Assembly: GCA_031835245.2 (NCBI GenBank)
Contig: JAVKOQ020000011.1
Coordinates: 1 to 64,000, forward strand
Source of the DNA: Balamuthia mandrillaris
Lineage: Eukaryota
DNA: 64,000 nucleotides
Reading direction: 5' to 3'
This document shows, in pieces, positions 3,055-48,564 of this stretch. Position 1 is the first letter of the stretch. Every line of letters begins with the position of its first letter. The translations under genes and the position numbers were made by a program. A model generated the notes under the pieces. It was not told the DNA's origin. It saw nothing but the letters and a program-made list of their open reading frames with translations, and searched no databases.

Positions 3055-5578
3055 TAAGACAACAACAACAACAATCAGTAAGTAATGGAATGAGAAATCA
3101 CAAAGGCATAACACTGCAAACAAACACCAAAAAGATAGCGCTCCGATGGAGCGCTAAACAATCAACACCAAAAGATAATCAAAAAACAACGAATAATAAA
3201 AACACAAAACTGGAGTTAAAAAGCTGCCGCTCCGACGGAGCGCTACTGCATAAGGATAGAATTGCAACCAAAACAGCCAAAAAGAAAAAAACACAAAGAG
3301 GAAAAGGACAAACAATCCAACAAACAAACTCCAACCAACAGACAAAATGAAATATAATACATACATCCCAACACGTCGATCAGAATGGAATCATCACTCT
3401 CTTCATCCACTGCAACTGCTGATGGAGCTGTCTTGGGGATATTTGTCTTGCTTTTGCTATTTCCACCACCACTACCACGTGGTGTATCTGTATGCATGCA
3501 TGCAAGTAAGATGCAATGCATTTGTGTGTTGTTATTGTGCAAAGAAAGGATGGATATAAGCAAGTAATAACAAAAAGAAAAAAAGAAAAAAAAAACGAGT
3601 AGGAGTAGTGGATGTTGTGATTGTTGTAACCACCAAACATGAGCACCTCTTACCTGTTGCAGGAGTGATATCAACACTCATGAGACTGGCAATCTCATCA
3701 TCATCATCATCATCATCATCAGCATCAGCATCATCATTCTCTGAGGAGCTGCTATTGCTACTGCTGCTAGTGCTGCTGTTGTTGATACTAGGAGCAGTAG
3801 ACTTAGTAGAAGCTGTAGGCTTCTTTTTCTTCTTGGATTTTTCTTCCTCCTGCTCTGACTCCTCCGACTTATCTGCCGCCTTTGACTCCTCTGACTCGGT
3901 GGTGGTCTTCTTTTTCTTCTTTTTCTGCTGTTGCTTCTGCTTCTGCTTCTGTTTCTGTTTCTGCTTCTGCTTTTGCTTTTGCTTCTGCTTTTGCTTCTTT
4001 TTCTTTTCTTTCAGCAGCAGATCATCATCTGCTTTCCGTGGCTTCTTGCTTGTTGCAGGAGAAGAAGAGGCAGCAGAGGATGACATAGCTCTTGGGCGCT
4101 TTGTTGAGCTTGGTTTTTGCTGCTTTCTTTTTGCTGCTATTGCTGCTGCTGCTGCTGCTGCTGCTATGTCCATTTTGTCTACAAACTCACCAACTGATGT
4201 AGCATTTGCATCATTATCACCACCACCACCACCACCCAGACGACTGCCATCATCAAGACTAAACTCTGCATCATTCAAACTACTACTCTGGTCCACAGTA
4301 GCAAAAGAGCGAAGGTCAGGCCCAAAAAACTCTGTCAAGTCAATGCAGGGGCTGGCATCAACAGATATATCTTGCTGTAGCTCACTGCTCTTCTGAGCCA
4401 GCTTGTCCATGGCTTTTTGGTGCCTAACTGAATGGCGTTTGGCGCGATGCTTCTCCCTCTTCATTTCTGTAGTGCCGACTTTGGTAGAGGCTGTATGGAT
4501 GGGCTGCCACGTTTTGTCTTCCAATTGATCCACATATTGTAAATCCCTGGAGAGTAACAGAAAGAGAAAAAGAGAGAGAGAAAGAGAGAAAGAGAGAGAG
4601 AGAAATAAAGAGGAAAAGAGAAAAAGAAAAGTGAAAAAGTGGTGAGTTGTTGCTATGAAACAAACAAACAAACAAATAAACAAACAAATAAAAAAACGAC
4701 TTACCAATCAGCTGCGAGTGGTGATATAGCATCCAGCTCAGGCAAATCTTTGACATGCACAATAGCAGCTGCATCGGATAACTGGCCTGCTGGCATGTTA
4801 GCTGTAGCAGAGCTGCTAGCTGTACTCTTGTTCTTGCTTTTGGTGCTGCTGCTGCTGCTGCTTTTGCTTCGTCTTCGCTCAGGTTTTTTGGATTTTTCCA
4901 CTGCGATGTGCGGCCACACTCGCTCCAGCTGAGAACGAACCGGATGATGAATGCGTGTCTTCCAGACCTTTCTGTCCAAAGGATCCAACTCCAGCAGAGT
5001 ATTTTGTTGTTGCACTTCCTTCACCAAGCAGCGATGAACAGCAAGCACCAACCGCCTAACATCCTCCAAAGGTCCAGAAAGGTTGATGCTGGTAGAAATG
5101 TGCATGCCTTTCAAGGATTTCAGACTGGCAGAGTTCAACGTGTTCTCTGCCAAGGCTTTTTGCACTGTAAAGGGAGGACAATAATGGGTCAGCTTTATAC
5201 AGTAGAGGAACAACTTTTCCTTGGCGGAATGCTGCTTATCTACTATCGCTTCCTTTTGGGCTGCTTGCTCTAATTGCTGGTGATCCAGTGGGGGATGTAA
5301 GAAGGCCTCTGGATCTTCCTCCATCATCGCTTCTTCTTCTTCTTCTTCTTCTTCTTCTTCTTCTTCTTCTTCTTGTTGCTCTTCGTCTTCATCTTCCTCT
5401 TCCTCTTCTTCTGACATCCTCTCTTGTTGTCCTTTCATTCGATGACAGCTTGTTGTTGCCTTTGGGGGAGTAGCTGACATAAGGGCATCTGCCAAAGACG
5501 ACTCATGTAACCATTCTTGGCTCAACAGAGGCAAGCGAGTATTTTCCTCGTGTGTTGGGCTATCACTATGAGTAAGCA

Positions 5579-5610
<32 letters not shown>

Positions 5611-6226
5611 TGAGTGGACAAGCAAAGGGAATTTAAAGCAGAAAGGATAACAAGTCCCACTCGCAGCAAGCAAGTAAGGAAAGGAGGGAAGTAGGCACAA
5701 CATACTGGATAGTTTTAGCACGTAATATCATAAATAGTTTCTGCAGGCCTAGAGGGAGTTGTTGATATACTAACAACAGTTCTTCATGGGTGAAGGGACC
5801 CTGAAAAACACGTCCTTTTCGCTTGCGCCGTTCATCAGTGGAGGGCATTTCCTTCAGAATGCTATACACTGTAGCATTAATGAGATTATGGATCCAAATC
5901 CCGGTGGGCATCTCATAAAATCTGGACTGAGAGGGAGTAGCATCCAACAGTTGTTGTGGTGGCAGTGGTGAAGATTGGGGTGGATCCATAGGCAAGACCT
6001 CGTTGCCACGATCAAGACCAAGCGCGGCTTGATGCAGCATGTCCCAATGACCCTTGTGAATGGATTGCGTTAGCCACTTCCACCGCGGATTTTGCAGACC
6101 GTTGATGATCCATGGTCCTTCAACGATGCTACTATGGCAGCATAGGCCATTGGCCACGATATCACCCAATTCCTGGATGATTCCTTCGTTTTGGGCCTGT
6201 AGCCATCCATAATGACAAGTTCCCAA
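2535..6226 (-). other. Unknown multi-exon, low-complexity-rich ORFs inside the mobile block (probable cargo/accessory genes)
   Basis: Long minus-strand ORFs (2535-3074, 3532-4707, 4701-5669, 5633-6226) with GT-AG boundaries and microsatellite introns; no domain recognised. Confidence 0.35.
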
Positions 6227-6433
6227 CGGGAAGGGGGAGACGGGCAGGGGAAAACATCCAAAAAACCAAAGCAGGGCAGACCCCTCATATTTTGTCTACA
6301 AAAAAAAGAAAATAAAAAAAAGAAAAACGAACCAAAAGATTCGACCACCGTTACTTCATTCTGCGCCACTTTTGCACCTCATCCCCCACGATGCCTTCTT
6401 CTGAAAGGAAGTCGCTGACTAGAACCCGTTGCA

Positions 6434-8904
6434 ATGGGCCTGGAAGACCAAGAGGAAGCCAATCATTTGGACAACAAAAAGGCGGACAAAGACAGGCTGG
6501 TCTGTGTGCTGTCAAAAAGCTCATCAACCAAGTCAGTGGAGGTATTGTTGCTCCTCTGCTCTCCTCTGCTCTCGCTCTCGCTCTCACTCTCGCTCTCTTT
6601 GCTCTCGCTCTCCTCTCACTCCCGCTCTCCTCACTCTCCTCTTGCTTTCCTCTCACTCTCCTCTTTCTCTCGCTCTCCTCTTGCTCTCCCCTCACTCTTC
6701 CCTTGCTCTCCCCTCGCTCTTCTCTCACTCTCCTCTCGCTCTCCCCTCACTTTTCCCTTGCTCTCCTCTTGCTCTCCTCTTGCTCTCCTCTTGCTCCTCT
6801 CACCTCCCCTCACTCTTGCTCTCCTCTTGCTCTCCTTTCCTCTTGCTCCTCTCTTCTTCTACTCTCCTCCTTGCTTTTCTTTTTTTCTTGTTTATTCACT
6901 CTCATTACCTATAGGAGATCAAGTTGCCTTTCTTAAAGCATTACTTGCCACTCGCTGGGGACAGCCGTTGAAGGCAGAGCTCTTCCAAGCAACACTCCAG
7001 CCTTTGGCTAAGGGCCTAAAAGCTGCTTATGATGCAGCACCACAACGACAAAGGTCTCAACTGTTGTCAATTTGTGTAAATAAGGACTTGAAGCCAGCTC
7101 TATGGACAAAACTTGCTGCTTTGTCAAACCAGCAAGCATTTGCTACAAGCAAGGCTTGGTAAGATAACTTTTTTATTTGTCAAAATGAAAAAAAACAAAA
7201 CAAAAAGGTAACAAATACTTGCTTACTATACAATAGGGAAAGTGCTTGTGCTTACAAATGAAAGTATGGAGCTGGTGTTCCTTTACCTGCTCCTGTTCAG
7301 CCTCAGTCCAAACAAAAAAAAGGAGAAGAGTATGCAGAAGCCGTCCGCCAGTTTTGTATGAGCCACTCACACCCTGCAGACAATCAAACTGTGACCCTTC
7401 AACGAAAGTCAAAGACAAAACCTGCAGTGGTTTGTTTATTTTAATTTTATTTTATTTATCTCTAAATCATATTTATCAATAGGTTGTCCCAAAGTGATAT
7501 TGGAATAAACCAAAGAGTGCCATTTATGCATCCTTTCGGGAGGCCCATCCAGAGAAAAAGATTAGTCGTACTACCTTTGATCGACTTTGCCCAAAGAACA
7601 TTGCCCAATGTCATCGACAAACAGCTATGTGTAGCATTTGTCTTTCTGGCCCTAAGTTCTTAACTAAGCTCCAACAGTGCCTTACTGAGGTTGGCCACCC
7701 GAGCTCTTTGCTTCTTGAAGGAGAAGAAAAGAGGAAGGGGCAAACCTATCCAACAGCTTGCCTTCTTGGTAAGTGCAAGCATCAAACCAGCACCTTTGAC
7801 AAACTCCAAACATTACAAGAGGAGTATCAATACTTTTTAACTCATCTGGAGCATGTTGAACAACAAAAAAAAAGCTTTAAAGAGCAAAAGAACAAATTAA
7901 AGGGCATTGACCAAGAAGCCATTTTAGTAATGGACTTCAAAGAAAACATTAAACTGGGCATTAGTCGTGATGAGGAAGGACGAAACTTCTACTCTCAGCC
8001 CCAAAGGACCATTTTTGGAGCTACACTCTTGTATTGAGAAGCAGAGGGACAGCCATTAAGGGTACATTACTTTGATGTGGTGTCAGCTGTGCTAACCCAT
8101 GATTCTTGGACCACAGTTTGTTGTTTACAAGAGGTATTTGGCTCTCAAGATTGGAAGAGACTTGGTAATCATCTCCAAAACCTTTATCTTTGGATGGATA
8201 ATGGCCCTGGACACTTTCGAACAGGCAAGACCTTTTGTTATTTTGTTACCCAACTTGCTCAGGATGCTGGTGTTGCACAGCAAGTCCATGTAAATTATTT
8301 CTCTGAACAGCATGGAAAAAATATTTGCGATAGCCACTTTTCCATGATTAGCAAGGCCTTAAAGGACTGGACAAAAGAGTCCAATGCAGATGGAACAGGA
8401 ACTAATGAGGTTTGGACTTCTTATGATGTGAAAAGATGTCTAACAGAAAAGTTCTCTTTTTGGAGAAGAGAACGATTGTTATTCAACCACAAATATGCAG
8501 CAATGCCAGAAAAGCAAAAACGAGAATGGGATTTTACTATTTTAGTTCGAGATGATCTTCCTTCTTATCCAACTAAAGAAGAATTAGAAGAAAGAAGAAG
8601 TTATAATTATGCTCTGCCTAAGAATTTCCATGATTATAGTCATTTTAAAATTATAGTAAGTGATCCTTCTCCTGAACCTGCTAATGATTTGTTTTCTTCC
8701 AAAGGCAAAAGGCAGATTCAAGCATCTTTGTGGTCTTTAAACAGTCCACTTCATTTTGTTACTGTGACTTTTTCAACACAGCTTTTTAAAGAAGCTAGTT
8801 TGAAAAAAAGTGTACCAAAACCAGAAGAATATTCTGTTGGAAAGAATTTACGAAAAAGAAAAGAACGTCAAGAACAATTAAAAGGTTTGTTTATATTTAT
8901 TTAA
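6434..8904 (+). pseudogene. DDE-type DNA transposase (Sola/CACTA-Chapaev-like motif set), spliced, inactivated
   Basis: Motifs IYASFREAHPEKKISRTTFDRLCPKNI..TAMCSIC, VMDFKEN, YLWMDNGPGHF, YFSEQHGKNICDSHFS. Introns ~6542-6914, ~7159-7236, ~7430-7482. In-frame TGA at 7259, 7495 and 8035. Superfamily assignment is uncertain. Confidence 0.7.
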
Positions 8905-9559
8905 TTCTTTTATTTTTTCATTTTCTTATATATATTATATTTTTCAATAGAGGAACAATCAACTTCAAAGCGCCAAAGAATAACCTCATCAACATCATTA
9001 GAAACCTTTGTACAGTCTTCTCCTTCTCCTTTTCCTTTTCCTTCTCCTTCTCCTTCTCCTTCTCCTTCTCCTTCTCCTTCTTCTTCTCCTTCCCTTTCTT
9101 CTTCTTCTTTTCCTTCTTCTTCTCCTTCTCCTTCTTCTTCTCCTTCTCTTTCTTTTTCTCTTGCTTCTTCTCCTTTTCCTTCTACTTCTCCTTCTTCTTC
9201 TCTTTTTCCCTTTCCTTCTTGTTCTCCTTCTGTTTTTCCTTCTTATTCTTCTTCTCTTTTTTCTTCATCTTGTCCTTCATCTTGTCCTTCATTATGTCTT
9301 TCTTCATCTTTTGTTATACCTCATTTAGCACCAATGGAATTAGATTGCTCTTCAGTAGAGACTTGTTTGGATGTGAATGAAAACATGCAACTTGATATAC
9401 ATTCTGTAGAAACAAGAATGGAAATTGGGTACTGAAGCTTTCACTCTAACTTTTAAAAGCTTGCATTATTTATTTAGGTAAATTTAATGGAGGAGATTCT
9501 GTTGCTTTGAAGCATATGTGTGATATGGAGGTTGGAGGACCATATGTTTCTTTGCATAA

Positions 9560-9999
9560 CTAGGCAAAGCCTAGAACAGAATCAAGAAAGTGGAAGGATG
9601 GGCCACTTTCTTTTAAAAAGCCCTTTCAAAGAGAAGGGCATGGTTTGTGGTAAGCCCTCTCTAATGAGAGGGCAAGTGCCCTCCAAGAAGAGGGCTGTAG
9701 TCCTTCTAGTGAGAAGGACTACTCCAAGTCCTCCCTTTTGGGAGGACAAATCCCAAGTCCTCCTCTTTTGAGGAGGACAAACCCCACGTCCTCCTCTTTT
9801 GAGGAGGACAAACCCCACGTCCTCCTCTTTTGAGGAGGACAAACCCCACATCCTCCTCTTTTGAGGAGGACACTATTTTAATGGAGGACATCCCATTACA
9901 TAGCTGATGTAATAATATGGAGGTTGGAGGATTACATCACTTTGTCAAGCCAGTTTTTTGGAGCGGGATGGAAAAAGTGGATGGATGGGCCACTTTTTC
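9560..9999. repeat. Array of ~12 short hairpins including 31-bp tandem units GTCCTCCTC-TTTT-GAGGAGGAC-AAACCCCAC
   Basis: Inverted repeats seen at 9560, 9584, 9620, 9654, 9678, 9699, 9728, 9757, 9788, 9819, 9851 and 9971. Confidence 0.85.
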
Positions 10000-10789
10000 A
10001 AATAAGTATTAAGGAAAGTATTTCTTTTTTTCTTTTTATTGGAATAGCATTCTCATTTTTTTTTTTTGTGTTAAGTTTTGCTTGGCAAAAAGTTTAAAAT
10101 TTGCTTGTTATTAAGGAATGTAACTCTCTCTTTGTTTTTTTATTTTTTTCCTATTTAACCATTGTTTTTGCCTTAAAACAAATAGCCACAATCTAATCAA
10201 CATACACAAAAAACCACCTAAACTAACAAAAAATAACCAAAACTGCTACTCCTGAAGAAGAAAGAACTGCTCAGGTACTAATAATGTCAACGCTGTTCAA
10301 AAATAAGTTCAGAGCTACTGCTGCGAAGCCAGCAAGAAAAGAAGAATACCAAAATGGGAAAGCGTGAAGCAAAGCAAGCTCATGATGCTGCTCAAGTTGC
10401 TACATGTGAGGTGAATGGCTAGCCGCACAATGAGGGCTAATCAGGTGAAGGAGGTTAGCGGAAGACGTGCTGCTCGTGTGCACAAATAGTGCTGTGTTTG
10501 GTCGACACAAATCAAATAAGGAAAGAGTAATACATAGGGCACTTGATAATAGGGTGGGGTTATGCTGCGGTTTGGAAAAAAATTTTTGGATAATTTTTCG
10601 ATACTTCCATTGAAAAGTTGTCATTGTACATTAAGGGATAACCAACAAAAAAAAAAAAAAATGAAAGTTAGCACTTTCCTTCCACCAGGCGCATATAACA
10701 ATCTCCTAACCCACCCTAACAACCAACTAAACAAACAAACAGAAAAAAAAAAAATAAACAGATGATGATGGACCTTGTGTCTACAAAAC

Positions 10790-11150
10790 CTCAGAAAGAT
10801 TTTGCTTTGCTCTGTGTTAATATGGGAATGTAATAATAAAACACCAACTGCTTCTGGATGGCTGGAGCCAAGGGGTGCAGCAGACGAAAGTCAGTTTTCG
10901 AAATGAGGCCCCGGTTCTCTGCTGCCAGTTGGGAAATAACATCGATGGACATATGCTCCACTAGGGACAGATCTTGTCAAAAAGCATTGAGCATAAAGGA
11001 TTTCACATGGGCCGCTGGCAAATCCTGTTTTGTGAGCACAAAATACAGTAGCATCTCCCGTGGAGGTAAGCTTTTCTTTGATTTGGCATCATCAAAAATA
11101 TGTTCCGCAGCAGCAAGCGCCACTTTCAAGACCCTGTTGTTTTGAATCTG
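10790..11150 (-). pseudogene. Unknown gene remnant downstream of the Harbinger-like transposase
   Basis: Protein-like frame RVLKVALAAAEHIFDD...MLNAF*QDLSLVEHMSIDVISQLAAENRGLISK continues through a TGA at 10979-10977. Confidence 0.35.
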
Positions 11151-11357
11151 ATTCATTGCCCTGACACAACATAACACATAGAAGTAAGTAGGTTGGTAGT
11201 AGGTAGGTAGGTAAGTAGGTAGGTCAGAAAACAAACAAACAAACAAACAAACAAACAAACAAACAACAAGAAGCACATACTCAGTCTTGGAGAGTTAAAC
11301 TGCATTGGAGAGCTTCAACAAAGTGTCAGCAAATCCAATTGGGGGAAATTGAATGAT

Positions 11358-11903
11358 TTATTTGTTTTTCCTTAAAGGAGTAAATAAAAGCTCAACATTT
11401 GTCATTTTGGCAATAACATAAAAGGCTTGATGGTGTTGAGTATGTCTATGACGCCAACTCACTTTTAAGCAACACCAGATCTTTAAACGATGATTTAAAC
11501 GTTCAACATTAGCCCAGTGGGTTTTGGTATGCAGCTTATTCCATATTTTTTGCTCTTCTGTTAAAGTATCCCATGGACCTTTATAAGGAGTGAGAAAAGC
11601 AGGGTGTCCAATATATCCTTTGTCAGCTGTCACCTGTTCTTTTGTTTCCAGTTCATGAACAAGCTTAAGCTTTGCAATTGTCAAATCATGCATAGAACCC
11701 ATTATTCCTCCATAAACCCACACAATTTGGCCAGTATGTAGGTGAACACCAACTTCATACTTGAGTGTATGCTGCTTACATTTTCCACAATAAAAGTCCT
11801 TCTCATCTACAATAGTTGGCTTGGCTATTGGGCAACAAGTACAGTCAACACAACAAGATGGAAATAATATATCTTGGTCAACTCATCTATTTTCCCAATG
11901 GAT
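11358..11903 (-). pseudogene. PIF/Harbinger-ISL2EU-like DDE_Tnp_4 transposase, 5'-truncated
   Basis: IHWENR*...VDCTCCPIAKP, FYCGK..HTLKYEVGVHLHTGQIVWVYGG..GSMHDL, ADKGYIG, ANVERLNHRLKIW. In-frame TGA at 11885-11883. The exon starts after a branch-point-like TTACTAA and CAG acceptor abutting the TTAGGG tract. Confidence 0.8.
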
Positions 11904-11922
11904 CTGTTTGTTTTTAGTAAGA

Positions 11923-12068
11923 GGTTAGGGTTAGGGTTAGGGTTAGGGTTAGGGTTAGGGTTAGGGTTAGGGTTAGGGTTAGGGTTAGGGTTAGGGGGTT
12001 ATGTAGGTAGGGTTAGTTAGGGTTAGGGTTAGGGTTAGGGTTAGGGTTAGGGTTAGGGTTAGGGTTAG
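11923..12068 (+). repeat. Interstitial telomeric-type repeat (TTAGGG)n
   Basis: About 145 bp of TTAGGG with a degenerate stretch at ~11991-12020. Confidence 0.95.
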
Positions 12069-12081
12069 AGCAATACGTAAC

Positions 12082-12388
12082 TCAGAGGCGAGTAGCAATC
12101 GACTTTCGTCGGGAGGATGGGTGCACCCATATCCGGCTTATGCCGCATAGCGCTGCACACGGAGTGGTGCTACAGGAGCGCCACCTATCCTCTTCCTGCC
12201 CACACCCGTCTTCCTCTTCCTCTGCCTCCAAGGACCCTTTGGTTGATTCTATAGTAGTTGGTGCAGCCACAACCGGATAGGCTTTTTCAATCTCCTCCGC
12301 TACAGCACAACCGAGCACCTTATGCTGCGAATCCAAGTAGATAAATGTCTTAAAAGCCGTTGTGCCAGCATTAGCCTTTGCACGCGTG

Positions 12389-12429
<41 letters not shown>

Positions 12430-25458: not shown

Positions 25459-26919
25459 TTAAGTCTTGATTTTAACCTCGCTGGCTATCTCCACGAGAAT
25501 GCCATTGATATCACGAACGTAGGCCACGACCTGTCCCCAGGGCAATAGCTTGGGGGCAGAGACGGAGATAGCGCCAGCGTCCACGGCGCGCTTGTAGTCC
25601 CGCTGCACGTCATAGCTGGAAAAGGCAATCTCCATGCCAGGGGGAGGCTTGTCGGGGTTGTTGGTGCTGAATTCCATGGGAGAGAGGTTTGTCTTGGCTA
25701 GATCGTTGGAGGCGAAGGAGAGGGCAGTCATGCCCGTGTCCATCTCCGCATACTGTTTGCTTTCGTGCACGAAGCGTCGCTTCAGCCCAAACGCCTTTTC
25801 GTAAAACTCCACCGTTCGTTCTACCTCCTTCACGTACAGTATCGTATAACCAAACTTCAGTTGAGTGCTTTGACGAGAGGAGCTGCTGCCCGATTTGGAC
25901 TTGGAGGCAGCCGAGGAGGAAGAAGATGGCGAAGAGGAAGAGGAGGAGGAACTGCCACCACCACTTCCAAGAGCAGCTAGCATGTGTCTGCTGCCAACAG
26001 GAAGAGGCTCCGCTGCCATCAACTTCTTCCTCTTGTGGGTGAGGGCCTTGTCCCCAATAGCTGGAAGCAAAGGTATCGGCACTGGTGGAAGCTGACCCCC
26101 GCCTGCAAGCGATGAGGAAGAAGCTGATGAGGAACTGCTAGTTGTGGTTGAAGAAGAGGAGGGTGGAGCAGAGGAAGAGGATGCTTTTTGAGAGGAAGCT
26201 GGCAGGATTGGTACAACAGGCGCCTGTGGGCGTGGTCGCAGAGGTAAGTTGAGAGGGCTGGAGGAGGAGGCCGAAGTGGAGGAAGAGGAAGTGTCTGCCT
26301 TTTGCCCTGTAGCGGCAGGGACCTGTACATTGGCGACTTCAGAGGAAGAGGAGGAGGGAGAAGAAGAAGAGGAAGGCGGAGAGCTAGTTGGAGCGGAAGG
26401 ATCCAAAGATTTGCGTTTTCTGCCGGCTCCCTTTCGGCGTCCTCCTCTGCCCTTTTTCACAGGCTTCTCTTGCCCTGTTGCTGCTGAGTTAGTAGTGGTA
26501 GCGGCGGTGGAAGTAGCTGGCGTTTTGCTCAAAGAAGAAGCAGAAGTGGAAGGGGTAGCAGTGGTTGTTGTGGATGAAGAGGGGGAGTCTGTTGAAGAGT
26601 TGTCGGTGGTTCGCTTGCGCTTTGCGGCTCTGTCGGTTGTGTCCTCCGACTCTTGCGAGGAGGGCGTCTTGCCCTTGCTTGTGGCTGTGGTGGCGGGGGA
26701 CATCCCTCTTGGTGTCGCCCCGGTGTGCTTGTCATTCGCAGGGAGTCCTTTCTCCTCCCCTTCTTCTCCTTCCTCTGTAGTCATTTTTCTTTTCTTCGTC
26801 TCAGCGGAGGAGGAGTTGCCGTCCGAAGAAGAAGTTCGGAGAGGGCTTCCTCCACTTTCTTCCCGTTGGTCTCTGGCGGTACCAACCGCAGTCGGCTCTT
26901 TCCGCTGCTCAACACTCAT
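25459..26919 (-). CDS. VOC/glyoxalase-domain protein with long Ser/Thr-rich basic N-terminus
   Basis: Single 486-aa ORF; C-terminal FGYTILYVKEVERTVEFYEKAFGL...PWGQVVAYVRDINGILVEI; N-terminal KKGRGGRRKGAGRKRK. Confidence 0.85.
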   Translation of the reverse strand: MSVEQRKEPTAVGTARDQREESGGSPLRTSSSDGNSSSAETKKRKMTTEEGEEGEEKGLPANDKHTGATPRGMSPATTATSKGKTPSSQESEDTTDRAAKRKRTTDNSSTDSPSSSTTTTATPSTSASSLSKTPATSTAATTTNSAATGQEKPVKKGRGGRRKGAGRKRKSLDPSAPTSSPPSSSSSPSSSSSEVANVQVPAATGQKADTSSSSTSASSSSPLNLPLRPRPQAPVVPILPASSQKASSSSAPPSSSSTTTSSSSSASSSSLAGGGQLPPVPIPLLPAIGDKALTHKRKKLMAAEPLPVGSRHMLAALGSGGGSSSSSSSSPSSSSSAASKSKSGSSSSRQSTQLKFGYTILYVKEVERTVEFYEKAFGLKRRFVHESKQYAEMDTGMTALSFASNDLAKTNLSPMEFSTNNPDKPPPGMEIAFSSYDVQRDYKRAVDAGAISVSAPKLLPWGQVVAYVRDINGILVEIASEVKIKT

Positions 26920-27076
26920 CGATCTCTTCTCTATCAGTCAGAGGAAATCCTCTTCACTCCACCAAAATAGGGGACAAAAAAATAATCTGGTAAAACGGGA
27001 GTAGCTGCAACGGTCAACTATCGCCAAGCGCAAGCAGCCCAACGGTAGCAGTCTTGCCGTTCTCCTCTTTTCCTGC

Positions 27077-27131
27077 TTGTTTTCCTTTTACTAATTTTGC
27101 TTTATTTTCGTTGTCCCATTGATCGGCTTGA
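27077..27131 (+). repeat. 55-bp direct repeat, left copy (identical to 29849-29903), upstream of the Fanzor gene
   Basis: TTGTTTTCCTTTTACTAATTTTGCTTTATTTTCGTTGTCCCATTGATCGGCTTGA is present at both sites. Confidence 0.92.
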
Positions 27132-27988
27132 TCTTGGCGCCGCCTTAGTCTTGCCGTTCTCCTCTTTTCCTGCTTGCTTGTGTTTTTGATTTTCTACCCC
27201 CCAATTTTTTTTTTGATTTTTTATTCGTCAGTGAAAATTGGTGGACACCGGAAGGCTGAATTTCCCGTTCTGGTTGTCCGGAGTGATGGGCTGAACTGGG
27301 ACATCAACGGGCACCGCAGTTTGCCAGCGAAAAATAGCCGTTACGGCGCGGCGCACTTGCTTCCTTTAAAAAAAAATCAGCTAAACAATTATGACCCCAT
27401 TGTTATTAAGGCGGCGGAAAGATCATAAGATCTAAGGACAACGAAAAAAGAAATCACGACATTAGTCTTTTGGGCCAATGAGCATGTTTCCCGCCAAAAC
27501 AACCCTTCCTTCTCCCACGCCTTTGAAGGCAAAGTGGTAGGGTGGGGTGTACGGAATGGATGCTCATGCTGCTGCTGCCGCCAATAAACTTTTGGTACTC
27601 GTCAGTCGCCTTGACATTTTTCTGCTACTCGTTTTCTTTTCTTCTCTTCTCTTCTTTTCATTTCTTTCTTTTCAAAAGTAAACACACAGACACACACACC
27701 ACGAAGCTCCACGCACCACCGTATTTCTCATTGCTACGCTTCTACTACACAAGGAGGAAACCAGCGGAAGGAGGCAGAGGTGGAAACCGAAGCGGTTCAG
27801 CCGCAGGCAGGGGCACTGCTCCGATTGAAAAGGTAGCGTTCTTTTTTCTCTGCTCGCTCACTACATTTTTTGATGATGGAAAAAAAATTTGTTACCAACC
27901 ACTCACTAATGATTTCTTTTGTTTAAAAAAGAACAGCATCACGAACCTCTGTGCGCCTCTTCCACAACGCTGCTGGAAGCTGGCCTGA

Positions 27989-29746
27989 ATGGCAAGTTGC
28001 CCACAGTGCGGAAAAAAGTTTGCTACCTCTCACGGGTTGGCCATCCACTTCGGTCGGGTCCACAAGGAAGGGGGTCGCGCCACTACTTCTGCTACTTCCA
28101 CTGCTACTCGGAAAAGAAGAGCGGAAAACGCCCCAGCGGCACCTCAGGCAAGGGCACAGAAGCGTGGAAGGCCGCAGGCTGCACCCGCCCAGCCCTTTTG
28201 GAACCAGTTTTCCAGCTTAATCGGGAGAAGATTAATACGCCCGGAAGCCTTGTGCTTGGAAGAACCCTTTGCCTGTGGTTCAGGATGGTTCACCGCCTGC
28301 AAGCACATTCCTAACGGAGAAAAGGTGTTGGAGGAGGAGGAGGAGAAGAAGGAGAAGGAGAAGAAGGAGGAAGAGGAAGAGGAGAAGGAGAAGGAGAAGG
28401 AGAAGGAGAAGGAGAAGGAAGAAGAGGAGAAAAACCAGAAAGGCTTGTTAGGCCTCATCGAGGGACTCGTTCCGTCTCGCCCAGCCGTACAGCTCACCAA
28501 AAAAGGCAAGAACGGAGAGGAGAAACCGGTAGTGGGGCGAGTGGAGAAGATCCGCCTTTATCCGCGCCCGGAACAAAAGAAGACGTTGGCCAAGTGGTTC
28601 GGCACAGTACGATGGACCTACAACAAGGCCGTGGAGTTCCATCGTGAACATCAAGGAATGCCTCGTGATGAGATGAAGGAACAAGTCAGGAAGAAATTCC
28701 TAAATAACAGCAATTTCAAGGGAGAGGACAAGAGCCTTGCGTGGGTGTTGGAAACTCCTCGATTCATTCGGAGTGACGCTGTCGATGATTTCTTCAACGG
28801 CGTGAAAAGCAGCTTGGCGGCGGGCAGAGGCACGACTGGATTCCAGATGAAGTTCCGTGGTAGGAAGGACAAGAGCCAGTCTCTCAGCATCCAAGCCAGG
28901 GAGTGGAACCACAACAGCTCTATCCGCCAACTCTTCTTCGGGGAGGCGCGAATCAAAGCGAGGGACAAGAACTACAAAGTTCCGTCAGAGGTGCTCTATG
29001 CCGTTCGTCTGGTGAAGGACACTCGACTGGGCCATTACTACCTCTGCGTGCCTCAGCCTTTGAAGCTCATGGGCGAGAGCCAAGCCCGTGAGCACCGAAG
29101 GAGAGAGGCAGGCATCATCGCCTTGGATCCAGGAGTGCGCACATTCATGACCACCTACAACGGCTGCGGGGAGGTCACCGAGTGGGGCAAAGCGGACATC
29201 AACGAGATAGGCAAGCTGTGCCACCGCCTGGATCGCATGCAGAGTAAGGGCACCAAGGTCAACCACAGACAACGGCGCCGTCTCCGAAGGGCCGCTGCTC
29301 GGCTTCGCCAGAGGATCCGCAACCTGGTGGATGACCTCCACAAGAAGCTCGTGTCTTGGTTGGTCAGGAACTTCTCCCTCATCCTTCTGCCAGAGTTCAG
29401 GAGCCAGCAGATGGTGCGGCGAGGCCACCGCCGCATTGGCTCGCGAACGGCCAGAGCCATGCTCACCTGGTCCCACTATCGCTTCAGGCAGAGGCTCCTC
29501 AACAAGGCCCAGCAATTTCCGTCCTGTACGGTCTGCCTCTGCGATGAGGAATACACCTCCAAAACCTGCGGCAAGTGCGGCCAAGTCCACCACCAGTTGG
29601 GGGGAAACAAGACCTTTCGGTGCCCTCAACCCGAGTGTGGCTACCAGGCGGATCGAGATGCCAACGCCGCCCGAAACATCTTGATCCGCTTTTTTACGTT
29701 GCAAGCACTTACCACCTCCTCCTCCTCCTCTGTGAGGGGGCGGTAG
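27989..29746 (+). CDS. Fanzor2 / TnpB-like (IS607-related) RNA-guided endonuclease with N-terminal C2H2 zinc finger
   Basis: 585-aa intronless ORF: HTH/WED KIRLYPRPEQKKTLAKWFGTVRWTYN; RuvC-I IIALDPGVRTF; RuvC-II ILLPEFRSQQM; MLTWSHYRFRQRL; EEYTSKTCGKCG..FRCPQPECG zinc ribbon; RuvC-III DRDANAARNI. Confidence 0.93.
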   Translation: MASCPQCGKKFATSHGLAIHFGRVHKEGGRATTSATSTATRKRRAENAPAAPQARAQKRGRPQAAPAQPFWNQFSSLIGRRLIRPEALCLEEPFACGSGWFTACKHIPNGEKVLEEEEEKKEKEKKEEEEEEKEKEKEKEKEKEEEEKNQKGLLGLIEGLVPSRPAVQLTKKGKNGEEKPVVGRVEKIRLYPRPEQKKTLAKWFGTVRWTYNKAVEFHREHQGMPRDEMKEQVRKKFLNNSNFKGEDKSLAWVLETPRFIRSDAVDDFFNGVKSSLAAGRGTTGFQMKFRGRKDKSQSLSIQAREWNHNSSIRQLFFGEARIKARDKNYKVPSEVLYAVRLVKDTRLGHYYLCVPQPLKLMGESQAREHRRREAGIIALDPGVRTFMTTYNGCGEVTEWGKADINEIGKLCHRLDRMQSKGTKVNHRQRRRLRRAAARLRQRIRNLVDDLHKKLVSWLVRNFSLILLPEFRSQQMVRRGHRRIGSRTARAMLTWSHYRFRQRLLNKAQQFPSCTVCLCDEEYTSKTCGKCGQVHHQLGGNKTFRCPQPECGYQADRDANAARNILIRFFTLQALTTSSSSSVRGR

Positions 29747-29848
29747 GCGGTAAGGTTGCTTTGGTGCCGGCACCGTTGCTTATAGCGAGTCGTAAGATAA
29801 GCCGTGATTAGGCACGCCGGAGGTGGGTTATTTTTTGTGTCTGTTTTT
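29700..29848 (+). ncRNA. Putative Fanzor omegaRNA scaffold and guide (boundaries inferred)
   Basis: GC-rich segment right after the stop with pairing potential (GTGCC 29764-68/GGCAC 29811-15, GCTTAT 29778-83/ATAAGC 29797-802, palindrome GGTGCCGGCACC 29763-74), then an abrupt switch to T-rich sequence at 29828. The position matches known TnpB/Fanzor omegaRNAs. Confidence 0.55.
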
Positions 29849-29903
29849 TTGTTTTCCTTTTACTAATTTTGCTTTATTTTCGTTGTCCCATTGATCGGCT
29901 TGA
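29849..29903 (+). repeat. 55-bp direct repeat, right copy
   Basis: Identical to 27077-27131; followed by AGCTAAACAATTAT (29906-29919), which is also found at 27379-27392. Confidence 0.92.
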
Positions 29904-29978
29904 CAAGCTAAACAATTATTAATAATGATGGGGAGGAGGAGGGGTTAATGAGAATAGAAGAAGGGGGCCGCGGCGGGG

Positions 29979-31026
29979 ATGGAAGGGAAGGCAGCAGGAG
30001 AGAAGAGCGATCTTAGCGTGCAACTTCGCTACTTTGCATGTAGGGGCAGAGGTCAGGGCTTGCGCTACATCTTGGTTGATGCTGGTCACCCCTTTGAGGA
30101 AGCGGTAGTGTCCGCCCTAGGTGAGACATGGAAAGCCAAGAAGGAGGCCCAGAGTTTCAGTGGTTCGTTAGATGTTTTTTTTTTCCCCCTTGTGCTATTT
30201 GCCTTTGTTAAAAACTATTTCCCTTTTTTAAAAACCCACAGCTCACCTCATCGTTGTCCATGAGAACAGGCCCCTTTGGTTCCCTTCCTGTACTTCAGTG
30301 GGGCGACTACACTGTGGCCCAAACGGAGGCCATAGCCCACTACCTCGGCCAAAAGCTGAACTACTACGGCAGTGACACCTCCCCCGAACAAACATGTAAA
30401 GCGGGCATGCTCGTATCAGCGGCCTACCAAGACCTCATCCAACCTTTTCTCGTACGTCATGCGCACACATTTTGTGCGTGGCTGTCCCCTCCCTCACCTT
30501 TGAGTTGTTAATGGCAAATGTAGGCCCTCTTTTGGAGCCCAATTCGAGCCAAGGGCAGCGATACGAAGGACTTGTTGTCCCAGTTTTATAACGTCAAAGT
30601 GAAGGACTTGTTGCCACGGTTCCAGGCATTGCTGGGCGACAAGCCGTTCTTCATCGATGAGGAGAGACCCACCATCGCCGACTTTTTTGTGTTTGAAGGT
30701 TTTTGTTCTGCATTATCATGACACCATACTCCTAGTACTTAACTCTACCTCCACGCCACTCATCACCATCAACAACAGCACTGGATCTGTTGGGAACATG
30801 CCTTGGCCATGACAACCTTTTCCACAGCGACAAAGAGGAAGGATTGCAAAAGTTGAGGGAGTTTCATGGGAGGATGTTGAAGCGGCCCAATATTGCCCTC
30901 TACTTTGGCGGAAAGGGACCTTGCCCTCCCTTCTTCCGTCCCATAACGTTGTCCCCAGCGGAGGAAGAAGTGCAACACGTCATGGACGCCTTTGCTCTTG
31001 AGCTTGAAGCTGCTCGATCCTCTTAA
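29979..31026 (+). CDS. Glutathione S-transferase, multi-exon
   Basis: LRYFACRGRGQGLRYIL, PFGSLPVLQWGDYTVAQTEAIAHYLG, LLGDKPFF..PTIADFFVFE, RPNIALY. Confidence 0.88.
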
Positions 31027-46522: not shown

Positions 46523-46759
46523 AGAGATATATATAAAGAGAGATAGGAATAGGTATTATGGGAGAGTGATATAACATAATTAAAAATAAAGTTGTATTGT
46601 TTAAATTATGAGATTTTGTTTTAAAATAGTATTATTATTCTAAAAATTTTTTTGTTAATTGAATAGTTGTTTATTATAATAAAATCCATTGTTTTATTGT
46701 TTATGTAAATTATTTATTTATCTTTGAAAAAGAATTTAAGAATAGTGTATTTATTTTTA

Positions 46760-48015
46760 TTACCCTGCACAACCAAGTTTTTCTGAATTTCTTCAATACT
46801 TTTTTATTGTAGACAACCTTAAAAAAAACAAAAAAATAAAAAACACACCAACACCATCCAGAGTCGAACCAAGGTCATCCACAAGTGCAAAGCCTGTCCT
46901 CATGTTGGCCATGAAGGGAGCAGCTGCGTGCCACAGCCGAAGGAGCTGGACGAAAAGGGCACTGTCCATACAGCGTTCTATGCAGGTGGTGTGCACCAGC
47001 CTCGGTCCACTTTGCAGTGTCACATAACTGAATCCCGTGACCAGGGCTGATAATCTCGTTCAAGTAGCACATGCAAAGAAGGGTTACATCTTCTCTCTTC
47101 AGCACAATACTTCCATAAATCGGGGTTCTGTATCAACAAAAATCAGAATCTGTTGGTAAAAAAAGACGAAAGGAAGAGACAGGAAGGGTTTTGGGCAAAG
47201 TGTTTCAGAAGGAGAAGAAGCGTACCTTTTAAATTTTGTGAGAAGGTCCTTGCTCTCGCACCATCACGTTTTCTCTCACAACGGGTGAACGTATTTTTGC
47301 CATGCAACTCTGTGGCTGCTTCTGCTTCAGTAACAGAAAAGAAAAATTATTATTTTCAACTGCCATATTTGAACATTTTTAATAACTCAACCAATCCAAT
47401 TTTTTTGCAGACATCAAATTTTGACACGCAATTGTGGACACTCAAACCGAAGAAAAAACTTGGTGCCGCACGCTACTGAGTGAAGTCCTTGCCCCACTTT
47501 TGTACTTAGGCAAAAATTGCTCCGAGATGATACCCTTATCCTGGTTTGTCCCTCCCCTCCTGCCCTCTTCCCCCTCTCCCCTTCACCTCCCTCTTTGCCT
47601 GGCATAACTTGCTCCCTTCCCCCTTTTATTTTTTTTTTGCTACCCCTTCTTTTTTCTAATCTCTGATTCGCACTCTTTCCAGAACCATTTGTTGTATGTG
47701 ACGTCTCCTCTTGGTGAACCAACCAAGGACCCACCAACGACATCTTGCTTGTGAGCATCACCGTGTTGATTGAATGGAACTGAAGCTTGTGCCTGAATCT
47801 CTCTGACCGGAGGCATGTAAGCCAGCAGCAACAGGACGAGCCCTCATCTTTGGATCTGGTTGTGGCCAACATGAGGACCGGCTTTACACTTGCGGATGAC
47901 CTCGGTTCGACTCTGGATGGTGTTGGTGTGTTTTTTATTTTTTTTGTTTTTTTTAAGGTTGTCTACAATAAAAAAGTATTGAAGAAATTCAGAAAAACTT
48001 GGTTGTGCAGGGTAA
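46760..48015. mobile_element. Non-autonomous DNA transposon with ~150-bp terminal inverted repeats and TA flanks
   Basis: 46758-46911 is a near-perfect reverse complement of 47863-48017 (TATTACCCTGCACAACC.../...GGTTGTGCAGGGTAATA); no intact transposase inside. Confidence 0.85.
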
Positions 48016-48564
48016 TATATCCTTTGAAATTATTTTAAATATAATAATTTTCTTTTGAAAAATAATTTTTCTTGACTTTAAAAATAAGTAAAAATTATTT
48101 TTTGTAAATATTTTGATTTGAGAAAAAATAATCTCCAAAAAGAGGCACCCTTTTTGTTTAGCACATGTTAATTTTTCTTATACTAAAAACTTACATAACC
48201 AAGCTAATTATGTATAAACAAACATAAAAAACGATAACAACATTATGATTTCCTCATTTTAGGTATAATAGCTTGTTTTTGATTGGAATTGGTGGTTTAA
48301 AATATATTGAAGTCTTCCTTAAGAGATTCAGTTCAGTAATGTATATAGATATAAGTATATTATTATTATATATAATATGTTTATATTAAGTAAAAAGGAA
48401 AACATTTTCAACTTGAAAAGAAAACTGGAAAAAGAATGAACTAATTGAATAACCAGAAACAAAACCAGTGAAAAGACAAAATAGCATTTAATGAAAAACA
48501 AAAACTAAAATATTATGAATTAATAAAAAAGTAAAAGCCTGTTGGTTAAGTCTAACTTAAAGGC

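Follow-up and report, generated by a model that had tools for sequence, protein, structure and literature searches.

A Fanzor2 gene carried by a multi-copy, transposase-less element with inverted ends in the amoeba Balamuthia mandrillaris

The locus that we analyzed lies in a 64,000-nt stretch of the Balamuthia mandrillaris genome (assembly GCA_031835245.2, contig JAVKOQ020000011.1, forward strand, positions 1-64,000), hereafter the window. As a first-pass annotation made from the sequence alone had stated, it contains an uninterrupted ORF of 585 codons on the + strand (27989-29746), which sits among eukaryotic genes encoding a Nup98/RanBP finger protein, a TLC protein, a presenilin, and a Dictyostelium-type STAT. 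Two other marks by which the ORF had been singled out, its CpG richness and its lack of introns, are not distinctive. Its observed/expected CpG ratio is 0.72 vs. 0.66, 0.58, and 0.95 in the three adjacent host ORFs (0.61 in the window), and an adjacent 486-aa host ORF (25459-26919, - strand) is also a single open frame. In the product of this intronless host gene, a long region rich in Ser and Thr precedes a C-terminal glyoxalase/VOC domain, to which it is fused.

The Balamuthia genome is described as rich in unannotated transposons (bioRxiv 10.1101/2025.02.25.640156), and the window holds several other features of note. An interstitial TTAGGG telomere-type array (11920-12070) marks the edge of an AT-rich, CpG-poor block with decayed mobile-element-like genes; TTAGGG-like repeats also border a related Fanzor2 locus (L201) on both sides, in inverted orientation (3822-3854 and 5899-5931). 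A DDE-transposase-like remnant (~7900-8901), which may be Sola-like, matches Pfam DUF7869 just below the cut-off (E 1.7e-5) and has an in-frame stop before 8038, and it is the one gene on which the first-pass statement that all other mobile genes of the window carry stops was checked; we found nothing that ties this remnant (~7900-8900) to the ends of the element described below. Finally, a MITE-like element of ~1.26 kb (46758-48017) lies in very AT-rich DNA and is bounded by ~155-bp terminal inverted repeats (46758-46911 and 47863-48017, 93-98% complementary), with ends unlike those of the Fanzor element.

Table 1. Features of the Fanzor2 locus, in window positions
Feature	Position	Strand	Evidence or remark
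First copy of 30-nt direct duplication beside solo right end	27050..27079	+	exact
Orphan (solo) right end, full terminus	27077..27148	+	X1 depth 3,206 in bin; beyond 27148, the loose ends of 7 contigs differ
Second copy of 30-nt duplication	27147..27176	+	exact; would be read as the guide of the solo end
Non-autonomous Fanzor2 element, window copy, right end truncated	27407..29903	+	X1 depth step; loose ends with differing flanks
Left end, left arm of imperfect terminal inverted repeat; opens with TA, then AGGCGGCG	27407..27466	+	aligns with reverse complement of 27090-27147
86-nt GT-AG intron of antisense transcript from 5' region of element, no long ORF	27861..27946	-	joint 27860>27947
Fanzor2 ORF, 585 aa	27989..29746	+	profile matches, AlphaFold2 model, Foldseek
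C2H2-like zinc finger, residues 3-25	27995..28063	+	PF00096 E 0.016, 16.1 bits vs. cut-off 25.2; low pLDDT
Fanzor2 N-terminal domain remnant (PFWN...WF)	28187..28303	+	weak profile match, E 0.002
RuvC-I D380 (DPG)	29126..29128	+	D in 144/144 relatives; aligns with ApmFz2 D324
RuvC-II alternative glutamate E520, six residues before C527	29546..29548	+	E in 144/144 relatives; aligns with ApmFz2 E467
RuvC-III D557	29657..29659	+	D in 142/144 relatives; aligns with ApmFz2 D501
Putative omegaRNA region, 3' end cut short	29747..29903	+	placed by analogy with Fanzor2 (as described in PMC10530073, PMC11832414)
Right end, truncated; its 55 nt match 27077-27131 exactly	29849..29903	+	~16 nt short of terminus of other copies
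Repair-type filler: 2 nt + exact 14-nt copy of left flank 27379-27392 + TA	29904..29921	+	letters compared

The 585-aa ORF is a real, intact Fanzor2, an identity that had been proposed from its motifs and is borne out by profile searches, by the triad, and by matches in both sequence and fold to the Fanzor2 of a mimivirus. The HMM search suggested as a check gave 126 bits to the NCBIfam model NF040570 (guided_TnpB; cut-off 100) and scores above the cut-off to Pfam HTH_OrfB_IS605 and Cas12f1-like_TNB, while OrfB_IS605 fell marginally below it (28.7 vs. 30.5 bits). Among solved structures, the top match by sequence is mimivirus Fanzor2 (9B0L, E 3.1e-27). The suggested structural check was also run: the AlphaFold2 model of the protein has a mean pLDDT of 75.9, and its first Foldseek match is again 9b0l (E 2.4e-20), with Fanzor1 structures far behind (SpuFz1, E 1.6e-5). 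The Foldseek matches and the TnpA linkage of the relatives thus describe a compact TnpB-like fold, nearer to ApmFz2 than to Fanzor1 and akin, with weak tree support, to the pro-Fanzors of IS607 elements. At E<=1e-30 the protein has 1,749 representative relatives. Giant viruses and cyanobacteria are among the sources of its relatives, the nearest prokaryotic ones being mostly cyanobacterial. In the best 150 of these 1,749 representatives, those from outside Balamuthia are at most 50% identical to it. Lipomyces yeasts have annotated Fanzor2 proteins that are close to this one (40%; P0022 cluster). Taken alone, the protein is one further candidate compact editor among thousands of Fanzor2 relatives.

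PMC10711439 defines Fanzors by two marks, DPG at RuvC-I and, six residues ahead of the first CxxC, a glutamate. The protein displays both, the DPG being formed by D380-P381-G382. Conservation was counted in 144 representative relatives, with which a smaller set of 28 sequences agrees, and the predicted catalytic triad is D380/E520/D557, whose residues align with the D324/E467/D501 triad that PMC11832414 gives for ApmFz2. The two aspartates named by the first-pass annotation, in ALDPG and DRDANAA, thus stand, while its glutamate, E469 in LPEF, does not. Glutamate occupies the E520 position in 27 of 28 and all 144 relatives, and the E469 position in only 10 of 28 and 21 of 144; the neighboring P468 is nearly invariant (143/144). 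Because E469 is variable and E520 is conserved and aligned with E467 of the mimivirus Fanzor2, we take E469 to be noncatalytic and E520 to be the likely catalytic glutamate. The four cysteines of the expected C4 zinc ribbon were found (C527, C530, C545, and C550, followed by D557), as was the MLTWSHY motif. The second zinc knuckle is CxxxxC, a spacing common to 17 of the 144 relatives, and consequently the strict published C4 pattern fails, while a relaxed one matches.

At the N-terminus of the protein, the C2H2-like finger is followed by a basic, NLS-like RKRR stretch (residues 41-44, by motif scan) and by the N-terminal domain remnant, in which a predicted helix (residues 73-81) lies in a block with a pLDDT of 89. 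Of the 191 related loci that match both this PFWN-type motif and TnpA, 190 have the motif inside the TnpA span, in the +1 frame. A TnpA profile made from 27 viral loci matches 65 of 79 loci from viruses, 79 of 80 from prokaryotes, and 58 of 80 from metagenomes (202/239 overall) and has no match within the window at E<=10, which agrees with the earlier statement that there is no TnpA beside the ORF. In the window copy, tnpA is thus gone and the remnant of the overprinted motif persists. In ApmFz2 the N-terminal domain is structured and touches the omegaRNA pseudoknot, according to PMC11832414, and by analogy it would be because of this contact that the motif was kept without tnpA. We considered as a vestige of tnpA an open frame of 131 aa (27919-28314) with look-alike words, in the same frame as the TnpA of relatives, and rejected it: it scores -0.5 and -1.6 bits against TnpA profiles, values equaled by 7 and 23 of 300 shuffles, and its alignments to TnpA skip the catalytic motif.

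Reads mapped to 26700-30700 from four runs, one obtained as contigs and guessed to be DNA (X1) and three of RNA (X22, X23, and X24), reveal that the gene is part of a repeated element. Across 27370-29915 the X1 depth, which as a sum over contigs does not equal copy number, is 5,574-16,096 in 18 of 19 bins (540 in the other, a low-complexity bin) and 11-95 in nine flank bins, a step up of at least ~60-fold at the element. All four runs contain loose ends with differing flanks before 27405-27407, the left end, and further loose ends with differing flanks lie behind 27147-27148, which is the right-end boundary of other copies. The Fanzor2 gene is therefore carried, as its one coding cargo, by a multi-copy element of ~2.5 kb with defined ends and without a transposase of its own. 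The joints in X1 reveal that many copies bear deletions or rearrangements. One of them (27148>27407) connects a right end to a left end via an 18-nt spacer and corresponds to tandem copies at another locus. The noncoding ends have no significant match in 239 related loci, and the left-end pattern has none among viral contigs. Chance is the probable source of a 33-nt stretch at 6448-6480 that matches the right end at 82% (E 0.014).

The two ends form an imperfect terminal inverted repeat, perfect over the first 10 nt including the TA, similar over ~60 nt, and at zero distance from both junctions. Its alignment score of 56 compares with a mean of 24.9 and a maximum of 43 for shuffles (0 of 1000 as good), and by eye a comparable repeat was seen in 0 of 29 related loci. 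By the accounts in PMC6188088 and PMC10690162, the ends of IS607 elements have offset imperfect inverted repeats, and crossover takes place at a 2-nt core with preferred 5' bases. The left junction and the solo right end both have a TA, as does position 29920, and the flanks of the window copy (27395-27406 and 29922-29933) are reverse-complementary at 10 of 12 positions around TA. Such a palindrome is present at 1 of the 2,682 TA sites of the window, namely the insertion TA of the element. Both TA and AG are present at both junctions, the left one reading TAAG and the right one mostly TAG: seven X1 contigs, the solo copy, and two X1 joints have G directly behind the right-hand TA, where one RNA flank has T and another has A. 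Such an asymmetry agrees better with an "AG" core of the IS607 type than with a TA duplication, which would be symmetric. GG is not the only core of IS607 elements, since pro-Fanzor and Fanzor2 IS607 relatives (L087/L088/L098, the L099 and L141 groups, the L016 and L018 groups, and L172/L173) also have junctions with AG, GC, or TG, with AG in L087/L088/L098 and L172/L173.

At its right end, the window copy is damaged. The 14-mer in the filler occurs only twice in the window, in the left flank and in the filler itself, and the filler looks like the product of templated end-joining repair, although zero listed read pieces cross the window copy's own junctions, so that the right one is read from the assembly, where a local error is possible. 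Folding of the putative omegaRNA region does not surpass that of shuffled sequences (z -1.21 and +1.43), and Rfam returned no match near a gathering score for it. As a candidate pseudoknot partner of the right-end terminus, a single 5-nt complement of it is present, at 29751, looped in one fold and paired in another, and the energy of its duplex with the terminus is equaled by 40 of 300 shuffles. As described for ApmFz2 in PMC11832414, the last five nucleotides of the scaffold make a pseudoknot, and PMC10711439 reports that activity falls by more than 10,000-fold when the pseudoknot of an IS607 TnpB is disrupted. Because the right end, which would form the 3' end of the omegaRNA, is truncated, the window copy is likely without a working guide, and its protein could use the guides of other copies. 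The earlier assessment of the locus as "probably active" may hold at most for the predicted protein, with its intact triad, and probably fails for the guide end. For the same reason, the construct that had been proposed for expression, the ORF plus ~250 bp downstream, would likely carry no working guide scaffold.

Upstream of the element lies an orphan right end of 72 nt, ~160 nt upstream of the start of the 486-aa host ORF and flanked by a direct duplication of 30 nt that has exactly two copies in the window. The second copy begins at the junction of the solo end, which meets the first copy via a 3-nt overlap. That upstream copy opens with AG after C, not T, a poor fit to a TA target. The solo end and the duplication may represent a repair scar of Fanzor cutting, a lead offered by one case: an empty allele would have suffered a break 25-28 nt beyond the point of insertion, and a filled allele would have served as the template for its repair, with copying from inside the right end. 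Since PMC10432273 reports Fanzor cuts up to ~21 nt from the TAM, the fit is approximate. A loose end in one RNA run corresponds to a tandem right-end fragment at another locus.

As for the rest of the family, the nearest proteins are 97%, 84%, and 72% identical to the one in the window and are all named Balamuthia mandrillaris transposases. The family has 14 Balamuthia gene models, under separate accessions, and 0 of 13 annotated models retain all four C-terminal motifs tested. One-base deletions in the G-run at 29599 are present in X1 contigs and in none of the RNA reads (0/12, 0/18, and 0/7, i.e., 0/37). Because such deletions lie behind several of the annotated frameshifts, intact copies may be more frequent than the annotation suggests. 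Members of the family are transcribed: the element has low coverage in RNA reads, and since many of these reads are only 90-99% alike, several diverged copies contribute to them. The strand of these reads is unusable because the first-mate direction disagreed with the strand of two flanking host genes. The spliced joint in the 5' region is covered by 8, 2, and 4 reads in X22, X23, and X24, respectively, and the antisense transcript could regulate Fanzor expression.

In a second Balamuthia family, represented by the gene models P0050, P0052, and P0179-P0181, a TnpA with the catalytic motif YCRVSS adjoins a Fanzor2. The Fanzor2 part of these models displays the DPG, the alternative glutamate, and RuvC-III; they are annotated as fused and look like an autonomous eukaryotic IS607. 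This TnpA-linked Fanzor2 is 39% identical to the window protein, and the two are not sisters in a quick tree of 62 rows, whose support is weak, from which 18 of 56 picked loci had been dropped for want of an intact ORF, and which comprises no mollusc, Chloropicon, or mimivirus reference.

How could a nuclease gene be maintained in so many copies without a transposase? The explanation that we favor, with a confidence only a little better than even, is that the intact Fanzor2 is the sole coding cargo of a multi-copy, inverted-end element whose movement likely depends on a TA-targeting cut-and-paste transposase acting in trans, and that Fanzor2 likely serves this element as an RNA-guided homing nuclease, restoring it at sites that have been emptied. 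By analogy with known systems, a transcript through the right end would yield an omegaRNA with the flanking DNA as its guide, the Fanzor2 protein would cut the empty allele beside a TA-ending TAM, and repair from the filled allele would copy the element back. The window copy would give protein and likely no guide, its right end having been damaged and patched with flank DNA, and other copies would give the guides. Under this explanation, a TA-ending TAM is predicted for the 585-aa protein. The TA-symmetric repeat, the two RNA flanks without G, and the flank palindrome centered on TA argue for a terminal-inverted-repeat transposon; the G after the right-hand TA, the AG junctions of related IS607 elements, the C before the upstream AG, an omegaRNA fold no better than shuffles, and the loss of at least one of the four motifs in each of the 13 models argue against this reading.

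The main alternative, which we regard as possible and less probable, is that the element is a nonautonomous derivative of an IS607 (IS607EU) that lost tnpA by deletion, ends in serine-recombinase sites whose core is AG or TA, and depends for its movement on a TnpA supplied in trans by another locus of the genome. Most related loci have an IS607 TnpA, Balamuthia itself encodes one beside a Fanzor2, the TAG and TAAG junctions suit an AG core, and a 2-nt core exchange is indistinguishable from a 2-nt duplication. However, the long inverted repeat reaches the junction symmetrically if it is read with TA, two RNA flanks lack the G, the palindrome is centered on TA, and the endogenous TnpA-linked family has a Fanzor2 only 39% identical to this one. 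The role of Fanzor2, retention by homing, would be unchanged if the element were an IS607 derivative.

Less likely still is that the family is no longer nucleolytically useful and that the ORF, a passive cargo, is open merely because this copy is young. Most annotated copies are broken, many copies in X1 are deleted or rearranged, and the right end of the window copy is damaged. Yet the triad and zinc cysteines are intact here, and the absence of the G-run deletions from RNA reads suggests that some annotated frameshifts may be sequencing errors. The first-pass annotation had left open whether the gene is nonautonomous or domesticated. The former is right, and the latter, a domesticated single-copy host gene, is very improbable and largely refuted: an intact ORF amid ordinary host genes, with RNA reads over it, might suggest it, and it is not supported because the gene belongs to an element of high multiplicity with sharp ends, many differing flanks, and 14 gene models. 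Least credible is a bacterial or viral contaminant joined by misassembly, which relatives in giant viruses and cyanobacteria might evoke, as the neighbors are eukaryotic, a Balamuthia assembly encodes a 97%-identical protein, GC3 is host-like (0.70 vs. 0.56-0.68 in host genes), and the element contains a spliced GT-AG intron.

A bolder version of the favored explanation can be put together, which in its entirety we hold to be doubtful. In it, a TA-targeting terminal-inverted-repeat transposon would have captured a Fanzor2 independently in Amoebozoa and been amplified beside an ancestral IS607 Fanzor2 family, and the solo end, set between the two copies of a 30-nt duplication of its own guide, would be a native scar of Fanzor-guided cutting and aborted homing. 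If this were true, such scars would make Fanzor homing in a eukaryotic nucleus readable directly from the genome. Restorative homing is listed as shown for prokaryotic TnpB/IscB, and not for Fanzor, in the part of the 2026 review PMC13565253 that concerns us here. With its many copies, orphan ends, and putative repair scars, a TnpA-linked family alongside, and a near-complete public assembly, this culturable amoeba is a practical setting in which to test the native role of Fanzor.

Our search found no report of Fanzor in Balamuthia in the openly accessible literature that it covered, and the word "Balamuthia" is absent from the searchable supplements of PMC10711439, PMC10530073, and PMC10432273. 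Within that literature, a high-copy, transposase-less Fanzor2 family with inverted ends in Balamuthia appears to be unreported. The element resembles several known systems in part. ApmFz2 of Acanthamoeba polyphaga mimivirus (PDB 9B0L; PMC11832414, PMC10530073) shares the aligned triad and an N-terminal extension with the window protein, but is described as belonging to an autonomous IS607 with TnpA and a GGG TAM; the window protein is 22% identical to it over the structural alignment and has its own C2H2-like finger, long E/K tract, and CxxxxC knuckle. IS607EU and cyanobacterial pro-Fanzor IS607 elements share the PFWN N-terminal motif, but, unlike the window element, have kept the tnpA that this motif overprints. 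Spu-1 of Spizellomyces (SpuFz1), as portrayed in PMC3627910 and PMC10432273, is similarly a single-ORF, multi-copy element of ~2 kb with inverted repeats, a putative TA duplication, and no transposase, but it carries a Fanzor1, and its protein-less "ghost" loci, to which the orphan here may be likened, are two-ended where the orphan is only a 72-nt right end. PMC3627910 also places Fanzor1 in Sola2 elements of other Amoebozoa. The closest parallel is Fanzor2*, the name given to Fanzor2 in non-IS607 transposons with terminal inverted repeats and target site duplications in Chloropicon primus and molluscs such as Mercenaria (PMC10711439; also mentioned in PMC13565253). As described there, Fanzor2* has, like the window element, a Fanzor2 fingerprint, no TnpA, degenerate terminal inverted repeats, and an apparent short duplication at the junctions. 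The host here is an amoebozoan, the target site duplication is deduced, and the likeness to the algal and mollusc elements is one of description; with these differences, the Balamuthia element is probably of the Fanzor2* type, present at high copy.
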